Positions 33,967 through 44,136 of a stretch of 64,000 bases of DNA are shown piece by piece (position 1 is the stretch's first letter; each line of letters begins with the position of its first letter). Source of the DNA: a virus (Duplodnaviria; Caudoviricetes); the IMG/VR virus record IMGVR_UViG_3300012667_001143, positions 32,560 through 96,559 of that record. One strand, 5' to 3'. A program made the translations under genes and the position numbers. The notes beneath the pieces are model-generated. The model did not search any database, was not told the DNA's origin, and was given only the letters and a program-made list of their open reading frames with translations.

Positions 33967-33994
33967 TTGACATTTTCTCAATTCCTGTTATTCT
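33967..33994 (+). promoter_or_regulatory. sigma70-type promoter of tRNA array
   Basis: TTGACA-16-TATTCT. Confidence 0.7.
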
Positions 33995-34090
33995 TCAAAC
34001 ATCATCAGCGACGGCATCGCCGCCACCGAATGATACCAACCCGAAAGCGCGGTTGTTCAAAGTAGATCTTTCACATTCAAGTTTCAAAAC

Positions 34091-34162
34091 GCCCTCATCG
34101 TCTAACGGTTAGGACATCTGGTTTTCAACCAGAAGATCGGATTTCGATTATCCGTGAGGGTA
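34091..34162 (+). tRNA. tRNA-Glu(TTC)
   Basis: Full cloverleaf. Confidence 0.9.
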
Positions 34163-34167
34163 CTTTT

Positions 34168-34247
34168 TCAAACCAAAGGCTCATGACAAGGGAGTGCCTG
34201 AAACGCCCAAGTGTTCAGATAATCTGACATTGAAACTTTTGGTTTGG
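34168..34247 (+). ncRNA. unknown structured RNA
   Basis: 12-bp closing stem TCAAACCAAAGG/CTTTTGGTTTGG. Confidence 0.5.
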
Positions 34248-34263
34248 ATATTTAAATTTCAAT

Positions 34264-34339
34264 GCTTTCCTTCGTCTAATGAATAGGGCGCCCACCAGTT
34301 CGTGTGGGAAATCTAAGGTCGAGTCCTTAGAGGAAAGCG
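34264..34339 (+). tRNA. aberrant Glu-like tRNA
   Basis: 8-bp acceptor, 8-nt anticodon loop CAGTTCGT, altered T arm. Confidence 0.6.
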
Positions 34340-34345
34340 CTTAAT

Positions 34346-34379
34346 AGCGGGTAGGACAAGATGGTTAGTCGGCAGTCCT
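34346..34379 (+). pseudogene. 5' tRNA half (probably Met) broken at the anticodon loop
   Basis: Acceptor 5' strand, D arm, CAGTC-CT; TTAATAGCGGG shared with 34963. Confidence 0.65.
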
Positions 34380-34412
34380 TGAAATATATACTTTTACAAT
34401 TATCATGAGTAT

Positions 34413-34958
34413 ATGAGATATACAATTTACAAGATTACAAATAATCTTAATAAAAAGATTTATATAGGTAAACATCAGACAACAAATCCAAATGATACTT
34501 ACTTCAGCTCTGGTAAAGCAATCATAGATGCCATAAAAAAGTATGGCAGAAAAAACTTTACGAAAGAAGTACTATTTGACTTTGATAATGAATATGAAAT
34601 GAATCTTATGGAAAAAGCGCTCATCACTGAAGATTTCGTATCTCGTAGTGATACGTACAACCTTGGTATTGGAGGTGAAGGTGGTCCTCATTTTAAAGGT
34701 AAACAACATACAAAGGAAACAATCGATAAATTAAGATCTGTTGAAGTGTTGCAATCAACCAGAGACAAGCTATCTCAGATCCAATCAGGATCTACACACT
34801 TACCAGAAACCAAGAAGAAGATTTCCGAGTCAATGAAAGGAAAGACTCGTTCAGAAGAAACCAAGAAGAAGATTGCTGAATCTTTAAAAGGTAGAACTCG
34901 TTCAGAAGAAACTAAGAAAAAGATTGCTGATTCAATGAAAAAACTCAGAGAATATTAA
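34413..34958 (+). CDS. GIY-YIG homing endonuclease with NUMOD3 repeats
   Basis: TIYKITN...IYIG; SEETKKKI repeats. Confidence 0.9.
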   Translation: MRYTIYKITNNLNKKIYIGKHQTTNPNDTYFSSGKAIIDAIKKYGRKNFTKEVLFDFDNEYEMNLMEKALITEDFVSRSDTYNLGIGGEGGPHFKGKQHTKETIDKLRSVEVLQSTRDKLSQIQSGSTHLPETKKKISESMKGKTRSEETKKKIAESLKGRTRSEETKKKIADSMKKLREY

Positions 34959-34967
34959 AAATTTAAT

Positions 34968-35042
34968 AGCGGGGTAGTAGCAGTTCGGTAGCTCGTCAGT
35001 CTCATAAGCTGAAGGTCGTGGGTTCAAATCCCACCCCCGCCA
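34968..35042 (+). tRNA. tRNA-Met(CAT), initiator-like
   Basis: Cloverleaf; A1xC72 mismatch. Confidence 0.88.
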
Positions 35043-35046
35043 CCTT

Positions 35047-35133
35047 GGAAATATGACAGAGCGGTAATGTGTCAGTTTGCTAAACTGTAGCCACCTTTAA
35101 TCGGGTGCATTGGTTCGATTCCAATTATTTCCG
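35047..35133 (+). tRNA. tRNA-Ser(GCT)
   Basis: Cloverleaf, long variable arm. Confidence 0.92.
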
Positions 35134-35140
35134 CTTTTTA

Positions 35141-35212
35141 GGGCTACTCGTTCAACGGATAGGACATCTGGCTACGAACCAGAAAATCGAGGTTCGATTC
35201 CTTGGTAGCCCG
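35141..35212 (+). tRNA. tRNA-Arg(ACG)
   Basis: Cloverleaf. Confidence 0.92.
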
Positions 35213-35220
35213 CTTTCAAA

Positions 35221-35304
35221 GCGTTGTCGCCAGAGCAGGAGAGCTGGGATAGACTGTAAATCTATTGCTTTCGGGCTGAGTTGGTTCGATTCCAACACAA
35301 CGCA
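35221..35304 (+). tRNA. tRNA-Tyr(GTA)
   Basis: Cloverleaf, long variable arm. Confidence 0.9.
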
Positions 35305-35306
35305 TT

Positions 35307-35711
35307 TCAATAAACTTTAATTCCTAAAGAGCCTCTTCCTTTCCCTTTGTTTTTGGCTCTACAGGTGTCCAACTGAGAATCACAATTTGGACATATCAAT
35401 CTGAAATTTTGCCAGTGGTTATTCAAAGCGCATCCGTCAATATGGTCAACCCATAATCTTATTGGTTTTTCATTCCATTCGGTGATTCCGCAGATTTCAC
35501 AAAAGTTTCCCCTTTCTTGGACTAGATGTTTATAGACAGTGGTTCTATTTATTTGCTTCCCAACAAATTCTCCATTCTTTAGTTTGTCCAAATAAAGAGC
35601 GGCTTCAAAAGACCTTTGGCATTTGTTGCTACAATATTTTCCAGTGGAAGAGTATCCGAATAAAAAGTCTTGTTTGCAGTATAAACATCTTGACTTAAAC
35701 TTCTTTTTCAT
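35307..35711 (-). CDS. HNH homing endonuclease
   Basis: KYCSNKC, CEICG, VDHIDG...N.RLICPNC. Confidence 0.88.
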   Translation of the reverse strand: MKKKFKSRCLYCKQDFLFGYSSTGKYCSNKCQRSFEAALYLDKLKNGEFVGKQINRTTVYKHLVQERGNFCEICGITEWNEKPIRLWVDHIDGCALNNHWQNFRLICPNCDSQLDTCRAKNKGKGRGSLGIKVY

Positions 35712-35748
35712 GTATATATATACACGTTAGTTTTCATTTTTCAATTAT

Positions 35749-35822
35749 CCACGTATGGCTGAGGCGGACAAAGCACCTTCTTTATAAGGGGGATTTTGTG
35801 GGTTCGAACCCCACTGCGCGGA
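35749..35822 (+). tRNA. tRNA-Ile(TAT)
   Basis: Cloverleaf, one acceptor mismatch. Confidence 0.82.
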
Positions 35823-35828
35823 CTTAAA

Positions 35829-35900
35829 CCACACTAAGCTTTAATGGTGAAGCGTCTGTCTGAAGAACAGAAAAAGTCGATTCAAGCGCGACAGTGTGGA
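35829..35900 (+). tRNA. tRNA-Phe(GAA)
   Basis: Cloverleaf, T-stem mismatch. Confidence 0.82.
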
Positions 35901-35903
35901 CTT

Positions 35904-35967
35904 TATCGAGAAGAACTCGATACGACCATCAGGGTTTTGGTCTCCTGATGTAAAAGAAAAGACCGTA
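35904..35967 (+). ncRNA. hairpin plus H-type pseudoknot
   Basis: CATCAGG/CCTGATG; loop GGTCT pairs AGACC. Confidence 0.5.
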
Positions 35968-35976
35968 CAATTTCAA

Positions 35977-36044
35977 TGAGGGAAGATTCGACATGCATTC
36001 AGGATCGTAGCCTGAAACGGTCGCTGCGAAATCGGAACTCACCA
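35977..36044 (+). ncRNA. rod-like RNA ending in ACCA
   Basis: Nested stems, apical TTCAGG/CCTGAA. Confidence 0.45.
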
Positions 36045-36052
36045 ATTTCAAT

Positions 36053-36124
36053 GGGTCGTTCGTTCAACGGATAGGACTTTAGATTTCTACTCTAATAATG
36101 GGGGTTCGATTCCCTCACGACCTA
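36053..36124 (+). tRNA. tRNA-Arg(TCT)
   Basis: Cloverleaf. Confidence 0.92.
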
Positions 36125-36130
36125 CTTTAA

Positions 36131-36199
36131 TGCTCGCTGGAGTCCTGCATGTCGCGATCAGGATAGCCTGTGCTGTGCAAACCAGACGGTGAGCAACCA
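36131..36199 (+). ncRNA. tRNA-sized non-cloverleaf RNA with acceptor-like stem and ACCA
   Basis: TGCTCGCTG/CGGTGAGCA then ACCA. Confidence 0.6.
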
Positions 36200-36204
36200 A
36201 TTTC

Positions 36205-36275
36205 GCGGGATTAGTTTAATGGTAAAACAATAGCCTTCCAAGCTGAAGTCGAGAGTTCGATTCTCTCATCCCGCA
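36205..36275 (+). tRNA. tRNA-Gly(TCC)
   Basis: Cloverleaf. Confidence 0.92.
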
Positions 36276-36278
36276 CTT

Positions 36279-36435
36279 TTTGTCATGCCATATGCAGCAC
36301 AGACATGTATATGCGCGTATGCGGTGACGCGCTGCTAACCACAGTGCAATAGACGCAACGTAATCCGACGCATGGTGGTAAAGTCAGGTGGTTCTGAAAA
36401 TATCCATCCTCTGTGAATTTCGGTAGTATGACAAA
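36279..36435 (+). ncRNA. unknown multi-stem RNA
   Basis: Four nested stems. Confidence 0.6.
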
Positions 36436-36442
36436 GTTTTTT

Positions 36443-36516
36443 CTGGTATTAGCGAAGCTTGGTATCGCGCCTGATTTGGATTCAGGAGATCGTAGGTTCA
36501 AATCCTACATACCAGA
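36443..36516 (+). tRNA. tRNA-Pro(TGG)
   Basis: Cloverleaf. Confidence 0.92.
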
Positions 36517-36521
36517 CTTTT

Positions 36522-36586
36522 ATAATGCTCTCGTTGGAACGGAAACTTTGATTTGCAATATACAAGTCCCTCTGACGGGGTGTTAT
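36522..36586 (+). ncRNA. long GU-rich hairpin
   Basis: About 16-bp stem with one bulge. Confidence 0.4.
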
Positions 36587-36592
36587 TTTTTG

Positions 36593-36679
36593 GGGTGTGT
36601 GACAGAGTGGTCGATTGTGCTAGTCTTGAAAACTAGAGGGGTCTTAAAGCCTCCGTGGGTTCGAATCCTACCGCACCCG
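36593..36679 (+). tRNA. tRNA-Ser(TGA)
   Basis: Cloverleaf, long variable arm. Confidence 0.93.
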
Positions 36680-36686
36680 CTTTTTA

Positions 36687-36758
36687 CCGAGAGTAGCATA
36701 TGTGGTAATGTCTAGGATTGTGACTCCTACTAATCAGGTTCGAGTCCTGACTCGCGGA
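36687..36758 (+). tRNA. tRNA-His(GTG), atypical
   Basis: Cloverleaf; no G-1, A73. Confidence 0.8.
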
Positions 36759-36775
36759 TTTTTTATTTGTTTAAT

Positions 36776-36846
36776 TGGGGATTGGTGTAACGGCAGCACC
36801 GTAGATTTTGAATCTATTAGTGGGGGTTCGAATCCCTCATCCCCTG
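36776..36846 (+). tRNA. tRNA-Gln(TTG)
   Basis: Cloverleaf. Confidence 0.92.
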
Positions 36847-36848
36847 CT

Positions 36849-36945
36849 TTTTCTACCTGAAAAGAGCCTATAAGGAACGGTGATATAATGATCGTAGTGC
36901 TTCGGCCTGATTGTTTGAGTCGGGCGAATCCTGTGTGGTAGAAAG
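36849..36945 (+). ncRNA. unknown branched RNA
   Basis: TTTCTACC/GGTAGAAA enclosing hairpins. Confidence 0.5.
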
Positions 36946-36950
36946 TTTTT

Positions 36951-37023
36951 GGGAGTATAATTCAATTGGTAGAATACCTCACTTTTAATGAGTAAGTTTC
37001 GGGTTCAAGTCCCGATGCTCCCA
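36951..37023 (+). tRNA. tRNA-Lys(TTT)
   Basis: Cloverleaf. Confidence 0.92.
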
Positions 37024-37029
37024 CTGGAT

Positions 37030-37097
37030 GTCAGATTGCAACTGACTGATCTGGAATAAGCAGGAGAAGGTCCAGAAAGAATGATGAATAACCCTGC
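37030..37097 (+). ncRNA. hairpin plus H-type pseudoknot
   Basis: GTCAG/CTGAC; TCTGGA/TCCAGA; GCAGG/CCTGC. Confidence 0.45.
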
Positions 37098-37141
37098 ACA
37101 AATTTAGTTGACTTCTGTAGAAAATAGTCTAAAATGTATAT

Positions 37142-37504
37142 ATGAAGTTCGTAAACAGATTATGTAAAAAACACGGACATACAGAATTTGTATTAGAGAG
37201 TCGAGGGTATTATAGATGCAAACAATGTCGTTCTGAAAATGTTCAAAAAACTAGAAGATTAAATAAAAGCATTTTGGTAAAGGAGCATGGAGCGTGTTGT
37301 ATTATTTGTGGATATGATAAATATGTCGGAGCTTTACAATTTCACCATTTAGATCCTTCATTGAAAAGTTTTGGTCTTGCTCATAAAGGTAGGACATTGG
37401 GCATAGACTCTCTTAGAGAAGAAGCTAAAAAATGTATTTTATTATGTGCGAATTGCCATAGTGAAGTAGAAGGAGGAATTATAAAAATCCCAGTAACGCA
37501 CTAG
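37142..37504 (+). CDS. HNH homing endonuclease
   Basis: CKKHG, ALQFHHLDP, CILLCANCH; own TTGACT-16-TAAAAT promoter. Confidence 0.88.
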   Translation: MKFVNRLCKKHGHTEFVLESRGYYRCKQCRSENVQKTRRLNKSILVKEHGACCIICGYDKYVGALQFHHLDPSLKSFGLAHKGRTLGIDSLREEAKKCILLCANCHSEVEGGIIKIPVTH

Positions 37505-37559
37505 GTGTGCGGCCGCTCTGTTAAAGCGTGTGAGCTTGGTTCGATGCCAAGACTGGGAG
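37488..37559 (+). tRNA. tRNA-Asn(GTT)
   Basis: Cloverleaf; overlaps HNH stop codon. Confidence 0.85.
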
Positions 37560-37589
37560 CTTTTAAAGGAACCTTAATATAATTACAGT

Positions 37590-37895
37590 ATGAGCGGAGG
37601 ACATTTTGATTACAAACAATACGACATTTTCGAAATCGCTAGAGAGATTGAACGTCTCATTAAGTTCAATGATTCAGATCAGGTTAACGAATATGGTAAA
37701 AGAATCGGTAGAGACTTCAGCGGTGAAACAATTACAAAGTTCAAGATTGCCATTGACATCCTAAGCCAAGCTGCTATCATGGCACAAAGAATCGATTGGT
37801 TGGTTAGCGGTGACGATGGAGAAGAAACGTTCCATCAACGCTGGGATGAAGATCTAACAAATTTGCTTGGAGAGGGTCTGGAAGAGCATGCATAA
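37590..37895 (+). CDS. hypothetical protein
   Basis: GGAAC-N5-TATAAT upstream; IDWLVSGDDGEE. Confidence 0.75.
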   Translation: MSGGHFDYKQYDIFEIAREIERLIKFNDSDQVNEYGKRIGRDFSGETITKFKIAIDILSQAAIMAQRIDWLVSGDDGEETFHQRWDEDLTNLLGEGLEEHA

Positions 37896-37934
37896 TGAGG
37901 GGCAGTACCTCAAGACTCTACAAAAACTCCAAGC
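37865..37934 (+). ncRNA. anticodon-less tRNA-like element
   Basis: 7-bp stem with G3.U70, T arm with GGCAGTA loop, outer 8-bp stem. Confidence 0.55.
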
Positions 37935-37949
37935 GCCACTTTATAAATC

Positions 37950-38165
37950 CACGCTGACTCGTCACCAGCTAGTGTGTTCGCGATAGATGCTTGATGTAGA
38001 GACAACATTGAGACCACATGAAAGAAGCTAGTAATACTAGTAAAAATCGCAAGTCTAGGCTGAAGAGAGACGGTCAGCAAGGATGTCTCGGTTGCGTGAA
38101 ACTTGTTACATAACTGTTGGCTGGAGCGAAAGCTTTGAAGGTTGACAATCTTCTTCGGAAGAGTT
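37950..38165 (+). ncRNA. unknown pseudoknotted RNA, about 215 nt
   Basis: Several stems; cUUCGg and GAAA tetraloops. Confidence 0.6.
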
Positions 38166-38184
38166 ATGATCACGAAATTTTATT

Positions 38185-38592: not shown

Positions 38593-38650
38593 GCGGGATT
38601 AGCGCAGCGGTAGCGCAGCTCCTTTACACGGAGAAGGTCGGGGGTTCAAA
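38593..38650 (+). pseudogene. tRNA-Val(TAC) truncated in T loop
   Basis: Intact to GGGGG-TTCAAA; no 3' T or acceptor strand. Confidence 0.85.
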
Positions 38651-38676
38651 AGTTCACTTTTAGTGTAAATACTAAT

Positions 38677-39372
38677 ATGAACTACTTAAAAATATATAAC
38701 GATCTCGTTGCTCACCGTAAGCAAAATCCAGCCAAGGGTTACACTGAAAATCATCATATCGTTATGAGAAGTATGGGTGGTAGTGATACCGCTGATAATT
38801 TAGTAAGGTTGACGGGTAGAGAGCATTGGGTTGCTCATTTACTACTCTATAAGATTCATCGCAATAGTCAGACTATTCACGCTTGTAATATGATGGCAAT
38901 GAGATGCGAAGAGCGAGGAATCGCATATATCAAAAATTCTAGAACATATGAAAAAATTCGTATTCAACACGCTAAACTTATAAGTGATCGTCACAAAATT
39001 TTACAAAAAGGAGAAGGAAATTCGCAATACGGCACAAAATGGATATGTAATTTAGATTTAAAACAAAATAAAAAAATATCTAAAGACGATTCAATTCCTA
39101 TTGGTTGGATAACTGGTCGAAATAAATGGAATCCTAAACCTAAAAAACAAAAAAAAGCTCGATTATTATCGGGTAAAACTTTGAAACAGCAAGCTCTACA
39201 TGAGCGGCAGACTAAAACATACTTAATAGATAATTTAGTATTTTTTGGTTTAAAGGAGGTGTGTAATTATTATAATCTATCACATCCAGCAGTTTTATAT
39301 AGAATTAAGTCTCTTAATTTTCCATCTTGGAGAATTAAAAGCGGGAGTGAGTCGAGTGGCGAAGACACCTGA
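38677..39372 (+). CDS. HNH homing endonuclease
   Basis: ENHHIV.RSMGG.D...NLV.LT.REH..AH. Confidence 0.9.
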   Translation: MNYLKIYNDLVAHRKQNPAKGYTENHHIVMRSMGGSDTADNLVRLTGREHWVAHLLLYKIHRNSQTIHACNMMAMRCEERGIAYIKNSRTYEKIRIQHAKLISDRHKILQKGEGNSQYGTKWICNLDLKQNKKISKDDSIPIGWITGRNKWNPKPKKQKKARLLSGKTLKQQALHERQTKTYLIDNLVFFGLKEVCNYYNLSHPAVLYRIKSLNFPSWRIKSGSESSGEDT

Positions 39373-39420
39373 TTTACATTCAGGCAATCACCGTGGGTTC
39401 GAGTCCCACCTCCCGTACCA
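39341..39420 (+). tRNA. tRNA-Val(TAC), replacement copy
   Basis: Cloverleaf with encoded ACCA. Confidence 0.88.
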
Positions 39421-39804: not shown

Positions 39805-40507
39805 ACACCGTATAATCCTCCGCATCTTCTAGCGCTTTGTATAAAGCTGCGGTCATTAATGGGTGGGTATAGTGAGGTCCAAATCCTTGATGAATTAAAG
39901 TTGTATGAGATATTACTTCTCCTTTTTCATTAAACCATGGAAGACCGCTATCTCCAGCCATTATTAATCTATCTGTTGATTTTCTATCTACTACTGCCGA
40001 ATTTTCATTTGTGTTTAAATGAGCTATCGACATAGTATCATCTTGGTGATAAGCTATCACCCAATCTTTATCTTTTGTTTTGTGAGCTAGAGAATATGCT
40101 TTGTGGGCAGTTGGTGCAGGTTTATCCAAAACGCAGATCGTTGTGTCGCTATTTAAAAGATTTTCATTGGTGGGTTTTGATAAAACCTGATCTCTAGACA
40201 TTGGAACATTTATAGTAAATGTTTTTATTATTCTTCTTTCTATAAAGCCGCCTTTTCCATCATTGAATCCAACAGTTGTTCCGATTGTTGGATTTGAATG
40301 CGTGCATGTGAAAATAATTCTTCTAGAAGGTGAATTATAAAGCCAGCCTTTCGAGTGTTCTTTTGTTAAAACTCCAGAAGTATTTATTATTTTTAAATCT
40401 GGTTTTAAAAAATTTCCAGAAGCGATTGAGTGCTTGTTAAGCACAATATCTCCGCATCCAATCAAAAAGAAAGAACAAATCAAGATAATAAACTTTTTAA
40501 TATTCAT
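39797..40507 (-). CDS. trypsin-like serine protease, lipoprotein
   Basis: LIGC lipobox; TCTH, DTTI, GDSG triad. Confidence 0.75.
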   Translation of the reverse strand: MNIKKFIILICSFFLIGCGDIVLNKHSIASGNFLKPDLKIINTSGVLTKEHSKGWLYNSPSRRIIFTCTHSNPTIGTTVGFNDGKGGFIERRIIKTFTINVPMSRDQVLSKPTNENLLNSDTTICVLDKPAPTAHKAYSLAHKTKDKDWVIAYHQDDTMSIAHLNTNENSAVVDRKSTDRLIMAGDSGLPWFNEKGEVISHTTLIHQGFGPHYTHPLMTAALYKALEDAEDYTVSN

Positions 40508-41829
40508 CTGCTTATCTCCTCCCAATCCATAGAACCATGCACAACTTCTGAATCAGTGCTTGCAGATACAACAAGTGTTAATTCATAAGCCTCGCCTGTA
40601 AGACTATTTCTTTCAAGCTGGAATTTAAATAAAGCTTCTTTTAAAATGTCTATGCTTGTAGCTCCTTGAGCATTGGAAGTAAGATAGCCAGAAGCTAACA
40701 CTCTACCTCCTGATATGCCAGTTCCGTTGAGTTTATATTGTACAGCGGAATTTCCTCCATCATCAGTCCAAGTGCCACCTGTTGTGGTTCCAGATGCAAT
40801 CACTTTCCAATTATAGATGCCAGTAGCAACGCCCATTACTGACAATGCTGTCAGAATCACAATAGCATCGAGTTTTGTTGATTTTAATTTTATGGAAATT
40901 ATAGGGTAATACGTACCAGCATTAGCGAGTGCCTTTGGCGCTGTTATTGTTGTTCCAACTGCCTGTTGAAGACCTCTTAGTTCGTAGCCGCCTTCTGAAA
41001 TTACAGAAGAGCATATTTGTTTTAATTTGCTAGCTCCAGAAGTAGCAGACGTATTTGCTATTTCATATCTAAGCGGTAAACAAGCAGTGGTTATGTAAGT
41101 TGAATCAATAATGTTGGCATGATGAAATGTATGGCACAAAATAAATTTGCCATTGATTACAAATCCCATTCTAACAGATCCAAGACCCAACCATTCAATA
41201 TCCATCCACAAAATTTGAGCTTTGGTGATATCTAGTGTAATTCCAGAAGCTCCAGTTCCATTTAATTTGTCGCCATTCCAGTTTGATTGAGGCACTCTTG
41301 TTTCTGTAGCTGGAGAGCCATCGACCAATGAGCGCTCAACAAAGCTTAATGTTGAATTGTCGAGTTCTAAATACATTCCATTATCAGTGCCAAAATAACC
41401 CACTCTTTGTCTCAAACCAGTTTTTGCTGGCGACATTACAAATGTATTTAAAACTAATAATGATTTTCCTGGCTGATAAGCAAAAACTTTTGTTGTTTCC
41501 CTAGTAACAAAAGAACCAGAAGCACTGGTTACATTCATTTCAATCAATCCCTCATTGCTATTAAATGAGCCGCTGCCACTTACTCCACTAGCCATTGACC
41601 AAAGATTATTGTCCGCATACCTATGGCTTGAATCAAACAATGTCAGTGGCTCAGAGACTCTCATACGACCAAATGCGTCAAAATTAGTTGATCCTGCTGT
41701 GTTGGCAAAACTCAAATCTTGTTGCTCTAAGGGTCTATAAACATCATTGATTCTATCAAAAATAAATGGAATTTGACCTGCGGAATGTGATAATTGAGCG
41801 ATATTGTCGAAAGTGTACTGCTGCGCCAT
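40504..41829 (-). CDS. putative virion protein
   Basis: Beta-rich, SG/TG-rich, late motif upstream. Confidence 0.65.
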   Translation of the reverse strand: MAQQYTFDNIAQLSHSAGQIPFIFDRINDVYRPLEQQDLSFANTAGSTNFDAFGRMRVSEPLTLFDSSHRYADNNLWSMASGVSGSGSFNSNEGLIEMNVTSASGSFVTRETTKVFAYQPGKSLLVLNTFVMSPAKTGLRQRVGYFGTDNGMYLELDNSTLSFVERSLVDGSPATETRVPQSNWNGDKLNGTGASGITLDITKAQILWMDIEWLGLGSVRMGFVINGKFILCHTFHHANIIDSTYITTACLPLRYEIANTSATSGASKLKQICSSVISEGGYELRGLQQAVGTTITAPKALANAGTYYPIISIKLKSTKLDAIVILTALSVMGVATGIYNWKVIASGTTTGGTWTDDGGNSAVQYKLNGTGISGGRVLASGYLTSNAQGATSIDILKEALFKFQLERNSLTGEAYELTLVVSASTDSEVVHGSMDWEEISR

Positions 41830-42005: not shown

Positions 42006-42033
42006 TTGACTTCTGAAAAATCCCTGCTATAAT
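42006..42033 (+). promoter_or_regulatory. sigma70-type promoter
   Basis: TTGACT-16-TATAAT with TG extension. Confidence 0.8.
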
Positions 42034-42044
42034 GAAGGAGTAAC

Positions 42045-42327
42045 GCCCATGTGGTGAAATGGTAAACACAGCAGACTTATAGTAAAATTGAGCTTTATAG
42101 AGGAAACTTTATAAATGTAACTCGTCAAATTCGGGGAAAGCTTTCAAATGCCAATCCCGAGCCAAGCCTGAGAAATCAGGAAGGTGTAGAGACTAGACGG
42201 CGAGCATCTAAGGAGAAATCTACGATGAAGGGATAGTCCAGACCACAAACAGCAATGGTAGTGAAAACTATAGTGGTAAGAAAATCTGCCGCTTTTTAGC
42301 TTGTCGGTTCGAGTCCGACCATGGGTA
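42045..42327 (+). tRNA. tRNA-Leu(TAA), exons 42045..42078 and 42281..42327
   Basis: Joined exons give GCAGA-CTTAAAA-TCTGC. Confidence 0.92.
42079..42280 (+). mobile_element. group I intron (IC3-like, no ORF)
   Basis: AAATTCGGGGAAA, AATCCCGAGC, GTAGAGACTA, GATAGTCC; terminal G; U.G splice pair. Confidence 0.93.
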
Positions 42328-42429: not shown

Positions 42430-42552
42430 ATGAGCAAGCAAGTAAAACAAGAAAAAAAGCGCGTCAAGCGAAAGGGAGTTCACGCCAAGAGCAAAACTTC
42501 TAATCTAAAGAATTCTAAAAACTACAAGAAGTCCTATAGGGGACAAGGCTAA
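42430..42552 (+). CDS. 40-aa basic protein ending YRGQG (not in ORF track)
   Basis: MSKQVKQEKKRVKRKGVHAKSKTSNLKNSKNYKKSYRGQG; TATAAT upstream. Confidence 0.7.
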   Translation: MSKQVKQEKKRVKRKGVHAKSKTSNLKNSKNYKKSYRGQG

Positions 42553-43782: not shown

Positions 43783-44136
43783 GGGCCTACATAGATTCGA
43801 TCTTACGAAGGATTTGTTAACTAGCATGTAGGAGTTGATCGAAAGGCTCCTTAAAAATTCGATCAAAAAAAACAAACGGCAAAAATAATATTGTCACCTT
43901 CCGCAAGCCAGCTTTCAGCCGCAAGGCTGTTGCTCTTACTGCGTAAGTAAAGCGCTCAGGGATACGCTCGCTCTACCCTGAGTTCAAACCGAGCAAAAAA
44001 CATTTTTTATTAGTTTTTGATGTGTAAAAATTAATGATCAGAATTGCTCACTGAAACGAGCTAAAATATAAACATGTTTGAAGGTTAATGAGAATGAGTA
44101 AGGGACAGCGGGGGCAGTTCCCGCTTAGGTCCACCA
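43783..44136 (+). ncRNA. ssrA: tmRNA
   Basis: GGGCCTA/TAGGTCC-ACCA with G3.U70; GATTCGA; tag frame 43878..43946 GKNNIVTFRKPAFSRKAVALTA. Confidence 0.92.

Follow-up and report, generated by a model that had tools for sequence, protein, structure and literature searches.

What does a phage tRNA array carry between its tRNA genes, and are the contents of these gaps RNA genes in their own right? This question is raised by the tRNA array of an uncultured freshwater phage, contained in a 96.6-kb IMG/VR virus record (IMGVR_UViG_3300012667_001143) with an estimated completeness of 87%. The window, i.e., the whole stretch of 64,000 nucleotides (nt) that was analyzed, represents bases 32560-96559 of this record, and all positions below count from its first letter. 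A first-pass annotation, made from the sequence alone, had proposed that about ten structured non-tRNA units are interleaved with the tRNAs at positions 34168-38165 and are released by tRNA processing. The presence of about ten embedded non-tRNA units was confirmed, with corrections. These units exist, are conserved and are read on the + strand, the latter being evident from their G-U pairs, and six of them (U7, U5, U4, U10, U11a and U11 core) keep their helices via compensatory changes. We consider it probable (roughly 0.6) that the region represents a phage tRNA operon of the T4/T5 type, from which non-tRNA structured RNAs are excised.

Layout of the tRNA array

ARAGORN and Rfam together detected 22-23 tRNAs on the + strand between positions 34091 and 42635. 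Taken on one strand, the part from tRNA-Glu (34091-34163) to tRNA-Thr (38185) comprises 15 tRNAs, four open reading frames (ORFs) and about 12 segments which are neither tRNA nor ORF. The 15 tRNAs lie on the + strand within 34091-37560 and include tRNA-Phe(GAA) (35829-35900), which was detected by Rfam and missed by ARAGORN; five further tRNAs follow from 38185. The short T/A spacers described in the annotation were borne out, as adjacent tRNAs are 2-17 nt apart and mostly separated by T/A, and nearly every tRNA 3' end consists of the discriminator base, followed by C and a run of T. Its description of the range as tRNAs and further RNAs was likewise confirmed, except that its title passed over the four ORFs in the large gaps. 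The G+C content is about 36% in the window and 42-45% across the array.

The twelve segments were named U1 to U11, with U11 split into U11a and U11 core (Table 1). This number agrees with the about ten units of the annotation, with three corrections: U3 turned out to be a tRNA remnant together with a promoter, U8 is an orphan, and U10 also occurs outside tRNA arrays. In the search against Rfam 15 which the annotation had called for, no unit matched any covariance model at the gathering threshold or at E<=5, riboswitches, ribozymes, GOLLD, ROOL and HEARO included; only tRNAs, a transfer-messenger RNA (tmRNA) and a group I intron were returned. Comparison with shuffled controls showed an advantage of the single-sequence folds to a moderate degree only (z -0.2 to -2.9), and for this reason we relied on relatives. 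Across 16 related arrays, a closing helix of at least six base pairs (bp) was present in 46 of 70 non-coding inter-tRNA slots, compared with 131 of 700 shuffles (19%), with homologous slots entering this tally repeatedly. Within the window neither paralogy nor antisense matches between the units were found, and the junction word AATTTCAAT showed no enrichment (seven occurrences across the window vs. five expected, three of the seven at unit junctions).

Conservation and covariation of the units

Protein-anchored and pattern searches yielded about 20 distinct related arrays (numbered with the prefix L), all of which derive from freshwater or environmental samples. When the whole region was compared with 50,697 phage records by megablast, only single tRNAs were matched, and no close cultured phage was found at the DNA level. 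The related arrays are highly mosaic, with tRNAs that are 36-100% identical to their orthologues in the window and with units that swap places in a cassette-like manner. U5, for instance, is located after U4, after U7 or in the place of U7, and U1 stands before or after tRNA-Glu, depending on the array.

The collection of homologues, also envisaged in the annotation, revealed compensatory pairs in all six units named above. In U7, 11 of 31 pairs are compensatory and 99% are paired in 13 sequences, a value which falls to 24-54% once the partners are slid. Its loop sequences are highly conserved, it starts 1-3 nt past a tRNA 3' end in every alignable case, and its covariance model (R1) detects diverged copies in two more arrays, L009 and L003. 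For U5, six compensatory pairs among 19 predicted ones were found in four sequences only. U4 folds into a 5' hairpin and a pseudoknot, whose P1 pairs 35927-35933 with 35944-35950 and whose loop (35938-35942) pairs with 35961-35965 across an A-rich linker; 97.5% of the cells of its 12 pairs are paired (20-40% when slid), and four pairs are compensatory, this covariation coming mostly from two divergent sequences, L003 and L201. U11 core contains 58 predicted pairs, six of them compensatory in five sequences. Behind it lies the strong promoter that serves the Thr-Ile-Trp-Ala-Cys cluster (TTGACA-17-TATGAT, score 11/12, 38142-38170).

U11a, with 20 pairs, 98.8% pairing, three compensatory pairs and one invariant G-U pair, overlaps the end of the 101-amino-acid ORF, and its internal loop always contains the stop codon of this ORF (37893-37895). 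It stays conserved where the upstream coding sequence diverges; behind more distant homologues of the 101-amino-acid gene no U11a-like element was found. In U10, four of six hairpin pairs covary among 17 sequences, and the invariant pseudoknot is formed by CTGGA (37051-55) with TCCAG (37071-75) and GCAGG (37060-64) with CCTGC (37093-97). This motif is found on 27 viral contigs; in most of these it separates two small ORFs in the region that extends from DNA polymerase to UvsX in large T4-like phages. In the loci L172-L193 it occurs near base-for-base the same between ORFs of 79 and 83 amino acids on T4-like contigs of 150-200 kb, and in at least 20 other phages it lies between protein genes, 10-35 nt ahead of a start codon. 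A blastn search of U10 against the 50,697 phage records gave no match. In the search for host mimicry, one match of the U10 pattern in a metagenome-assembled contig was judged to be due to chance, because the remainder of the motif does not align. U10 was also considered as a leader of the 101-amino-acid gene family and rejected as such, as the ORFs downstream of it elsewhere are unrelated and those loci contain no homologue of the 101-amino-acid protein.

Two further units are conserved in sequence rather than by compensation. U6 is 93-99% identical in seven relatives and U9 92-96% in six; these values match or exceed those of the best-kept tRNAs, while the neighboring tRNAs range from 36 to 100%. 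Covariation is missing in both because hardly any variation exists. Among the loci found, U6 and U9 are confined to this clade, and in a search for host mimicry the U9 pattern was absent from 185,579 species genomes. Both were examined as peptide genes and coding was considered unlikely: an indel in L195 and the loss of the stop codon in L082 disrupt the frame of 20 codons in U6, and the changes in the 17-codon frame of U9 are mostly non-synonymous. Of U1, the core is 87-100% identical in six relatives, its flanks and its position vary, and in other relatives U1 lies upstream of the array promoter. The 13-bp closing stem of U1 is kept only in the window phage and in L201, and its fold is putative. 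The leader U0 is 71-84% conserved in eight relatives, and its CAACC/GGTTG hairpin covaries.

The remaining segments are of a different kind. U3 was rejected as an independent RNA: it represents the 5' half of a tRNA(CAT)-like gene which the GIY-YIG cassette has interrupted in the anticodon loop, and in L014, L082, L165 and L003 this gene is present in full length. The same cassette logic as in this GIY-YIG/tRNA(CAT) arrangement (34341-35044) is seen at 38593-39420, where a tRNA-Val(TAC) truncated in the T loop (27 bits) precedes a homing-endonuclease ORF (38677-39372), behind which a complete, different tRNA-Val is located. U2 was called as a tRNA (RF00005) neither by ARAGORN nor by Rfam at E<=5; its anticodon loop measures 8 nt and its T loop 6 nt. 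The sole homologue, in L201, differs in the anticodon loop and keeps the anticodon stem by compensation. U8 has no homologue in any related locus. Its slot is filled in relatives by a 102-nt tRNA-like RNA (L014:13155-13256 and L005:6577-6678, both on the minus strand), located between tRNA-Pro and tRNA-Ser(TGA); this RNA has a greatly extended anticodon arm and is scored as tRNA by Rfam with 41-42 bits and missed by ARAGORN. The idea that U8 is a decayed form of it was dismissed, since the two share no similarity.

Proposed processing, phage precedents and alternative readings

The main array promoter (TTGACA..TATTCT) is located at 33967-33994, and internal promoters serve the endonuclease cassettes and the Thr cluster. 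Apart from the weak U8 hairpin, no convincing terminator was found inside the array in a promoter and terminator scan. The units share the strand of the tRNAs, and most of them combine paired 5' and 3' ends with a distance of 1-10 nt to the nearest tRNA and with U-rich trailers like those of the tRNAs, in agreement with the T-rich flanks reported in the annotation. Paired ends, proximity to tRNAs and U-rich trailers together suggest an excision by the tRNA-maturation enzymes of the host, yielding discrete small RNAs. In the mechanism proposed here, one main promoter and a few internal ones would drive a long + strand transcript which holds the tRNAs, the homing-endonuclease cassettes and eight or nine non-tRNA structured RNA genes, namely U1, U4, U5, U6, U7, U9, U11a, U11 core and the U10 motif. 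Host RNase P would generate the 5' end at the closing helix, and the 3' end would be generated by RNase E, RNase Z or exonucleases. The release by tRNA processing put forward in the annotation is backed by the anatomy of the units (tRNA strand, paired ends, trailers and NCCA) and by the precedent of T4 and T5, and it is from these that we infer co-transcription, excision and stability of the units.

A clear contrast between units and tRNAs lies in the encoded CCA, which occurs on non-tRNAs only. An encoded NCCA follows the paired ends of U5, U6 and U11a, whereas CCA is encoded in not one of the 20 tRNAs between 34091 and 38586. The two units ending in ACCA according to the annotation are U5 and U6, in which the ACCA directly follows the closing helix and is kept in all homologues, the bases beyond being variable; U11a, with its G/U-CCA end, is to be added as a third. 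All three display a G(+1)...N73-CCA layout, as in substrates of RNase P. RNase P reads the 3' RCCA, which matters most for substrates without the tRNA elbow, and CCA is an anti-determinant for RNase Z. In view of these specificities the contrast would fit RNAs which are processed without a tRNA body, and the encoded NCCA may aid RNase P on an elbow-less helix and at the same time block RNase Z. Non-tRNA substrates of RNase P, like the 4.5S RNA precursor, tmRNA, the C4 RNA of P1 and P7 and model hairpins, combine an acceptor-like helix with a 3' RCCA (in part from PMC12710915). U5, U6 and U11a resemble them in their terminal helix, in the single-stranded tail N-CCA and in the base at position -1, which is a pyrimidine or A; they differ in being new sequences for which cleavage is predicted.

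Stable non-tRNA RNAs of phage tRNA clusters are treated here as a kind and not as a homologous family. The units share with this kind their location inside a cluster of phage tRNA genes, which they abut and with which they are encoded on one strand, and they are non-tRNA yet conserved folded RNAs, as indicated by the missing Rfam hits and by the covariation of U4, U5, U7, U10, U11a and U11 core. The layout is of the T4/T5 kind that has been known for long, and the RNA families themselves are, judged by the searches made, new and uncatalogued: in the T4 and T5 clusters, nhmmer with the 12 units found no hit at E<=10, nor did the U7 covariance model. In T4, RNAC and RNAD (species 1 and 2 RNAs; rnaC, rnaD) measure 139 and 119 nt, are arranged head-to-tail with tRNAs right after tRNA-Arg and have paired ends, and according to the T4 record the same cluster carries segB, encoding a GIY-YIG homing endonuclease. 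Both RNAs are expressed and their role is not known (PMC3014915, PMC9697503). In contrast to the units, T4 RNAC contains a canonical tRNA T arm, and T4 has two such RNAs compared with eight or nine here. The T5 record lists 24 tRNAs interleaved with three HNH homing endonucleases, small ORFs and many promoters. It also contains eight features of 73-719 nt, designated as "stable RNA with unknown functions" (RNAI, RNAIII, RNAIV, RNA1, RNA2, RNA2H, RNA3 and RNAX), some of which abut tRNAs. None has detectable homology to any unit, and the phages are unrelated at the DNA level. In T5 the stable RNAs have been observed as RNA species; the units described here are predictions. YrlA, a bacterial and phage Y RNA-like non-coding RNA with a long terminal helix and tRNA-like features, is often phage-borne as well (PMC4201824). 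The YrlA model (RF02553) matched none of the units and gave only sub-threshold hits over true tRNAs, and the 96.6-kb record, at its completeness of 87%, contains no Ro60/TROVE gene (PF05731). A search of this record for Ro60, RtcB, RNA ligase and the CCA-adding enzyme found none of them (PF01743, PF05731, PF01139 and PF09414 all absent).

The role of stable RNAs in phage tRNA clusters has been a standing question since the work on T4 and T5 in the 1970s and 1980s. To this question the array contributes several new RNA families supported by covariation, with eight or nine RNAs in about 4 kb, more than in T4 and about the number of T5. The families supply defined structures and alignments for models, wider searches and processing assays, and the U10 motif is shared with unrelated large phages in another genomic context.

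Several points weigh against an operon of excised RNAs. Discrete, stable unit RNAs are predictions from sequence, the z-scores of the single-sequence folds are modest (-0.2 to -2.9), and most of the covariation is contributed by a small clade of close relatives (4-13 sequences). The folds of U6 and U9 are thermodynamic predictions only, and one U9 hairpin is weakened in most relatives. U10 is normally situated between protein genes and U11a overlaps the end of an ORF, and both are perhaps elements of mRNAs instead of released RNAs. As for U3, and possibly also U2 and U8, they arose as by-products when tRNAs decayed or cassettes were inserted. Extending this last point to all segments, one would regard them as debris without a function of their own, left by decayed tRNA genes and by the scars of endonuclease insertion and recombination in a mosaic array. 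The cut tRNA(CAT)-like gene in U3, the tRNA-Val cut alike at 38593-39420, the aberrant tRNA-like shape of U2, the absence of U8 homologues and the tRNA identities of 36-100% between the arrays can all be cited for it. Debris, however, accounts neither for the compensatory changes that preserve the helices of U4, U5, U7, U10, U11a and U11 core nor for the conservation of U6 and U9, which exceeds that of most tRNAs, and all these units are devoid of a tRNA T-loop and of an Rfam tRNA score. Conservation and covariation refute the debris explanation for six to eight units, and as an account of the segments altogether it is very improbable.

The units might instead act in cis, as folding insulators, processing guides, leaders of downstream ORFs (U10, U0) or, in the case of U11a, as a 3'-end or stop-codon element of the 101-amino-acid gene. 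The position of U10 10-35 nt before a start codon in at least 20 other phages points in this direction, as do the stop codon in the internal loop of U11a, the location of U0 as a leader behind a promoter and the end of U11 core at another one. Mere spacers, on the other hand, require neither a near-invariant sequence as in U6 and U9 nor a four-way junction of about 160 nt as in U7; many tRNAs in the array manage without any insulator at distances of only 2-8 nt, and the gene 3' of U10 varies among phages. We regard an action in cis as unlikely for the array. Even less credence is given to the functional idea of the annotation, which had named decoys for anticodon nucleases, antitoxin mimics and synthetase ligands and for which no direct support was found. 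In this reading the released RNAs would serve as decoys or mimics for host factors that bind the ends or the body of tRNAs, such as tRNA-targeting defense nucleases, RNase P, the CCA-adding enzyme, a synthetase or EF-Tu. It is known that defenses directed at tRNAs can be countered by phage tRNAs (PMC11464382; discussed in PMC13096335), and three CCA-ended minihelices amid tRNAs that encode no CCA, the invariant G-U pair in U11a and the non-decoding tRNA shape of U2, with an anticodon loop that is unlike between two relatives, would suit such a role. U7, U9, U4 and U11 core, however, lack tRNA-like features, an anticodon arm resembling that of tRNAs was found in none of the units except the aberrant U2, and no partner protein is encoded in the record. 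A more specific version, in which U5, U6 and U11a are working acceptor-end mimics that are charged or else bind and titrate a host factor reading tRNA 3' ends (RNase P, the CCA enzyme, a synthetase or a nuclease of defense), is similarly improbable; here U11a would let RNase P cut the mRNA of the 101-amino-acid gene 28 nt before the stop codon and thereby deliver a non-stop message to the phage tmRNA. If this were true, the array, with U7, U9 and the other units included, would be a multi-RNA operon for host takeover or counter-defense and not a locus of codon supply.

Feature coordinates and neighboring genes

The positions of the units and of the ORFs in the array are compiled in Table 1. 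It includes the leader U0, which lies beyond the range covered by the first-pass annotation.

Table 1. Units, leader and ORFs of the tRNA array, with positions in the window.
Feature	Position	Strand	Description
U0	33995-34085	+	structured leader of about 90 nt between array promoter and tRNA-Glu
U1	34170-34250	+	38-nt conserved core (34178-34215); fold z -2.9
U2	34264-34339	+	aberrant tRNA-like RNA; 8-bp acceptor stem, 8-nt anticodon loop, non-canonical T arm
U3	34341-34412	+	5' half of a tRNA(CAT)-like gene and promoter of the GIY-YIG cassette (34379-34406)
GIY-YIG endonuclease ORF	34413-34958		
HNH endonuclease ORF	35307-35711	-	
U4	35905-35965	+	5' hairpin and H-type pseudoknot
U5	35978-36044	+	67-nt three-helix RNA; paired ends, then ACCA; U at position -1
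U6	36131-36199	+	69-nt RNA, nearly invariant; closing stem of 8-9 bp, then ACCA
U7	36281-36437	+	RNA of about 160 nt directly after tRNA-Gly; four-way junction with closing helix
U8	36518-36592	+	75-nt orphan; weak terminator-like hairpin (36566-36581) and promoter-like site
U9	36851-36945	+	95-nt RNA, nearly invariant; 7-bp closing stem, three predicted hairpins
U10	37030-37099	+	covarying hairpin (37030-37046) and invariant H-type pseudoknot
HNH endonuclease ORF	37142-37504		
101-amino-acid ORF	37590-37895		no Pfam match
U11a	37865-37938	+	extended hairpin with an outer helix of 8 bp, an inner helix of 7 bp and a hairpin of 5 bp; G/U-CCA end
U11 core	37950-38140	+	multi-hairpin RNA of about 190 nt

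Genes elsewhere in the window include those for a lambda-J-like tail fiber and a homologue of rIIA. Further along the tRNA region, the group I intron (RF00028, 42069-42261) splits the anticodon loop of a tRNA-Leu(UAA), a split gene at 42007-42327 that ARAGORN misses and to which the promoter TTGACT..TATAAT at 42007-42034 belongs; the same intron adjoins tRNA-Leu in the relative L005. Between this intron-bearing tRNA-Leu and tRNA-Met, an ORF of 40 amino acids (42430-42552) codes for a very basic protein rich in Lys and Arg, without a Pfam match. The phage-encoded tmRNA (RF00023, 73 bits) is located just downstream of the array at 43783-44136 and was also found in L005, L014, L011 and L017. Inside the tRNA region, a virion structural protein gene is encoded on the minus strand (40504-41829); among cultured phages, T4-like cyanophages match it best (S-RIM50, 69%). 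Along with the tRNA-Leu(UAA) that bears the intron, this S-RIM50-like structural protein hints at a cyanobacterial host.

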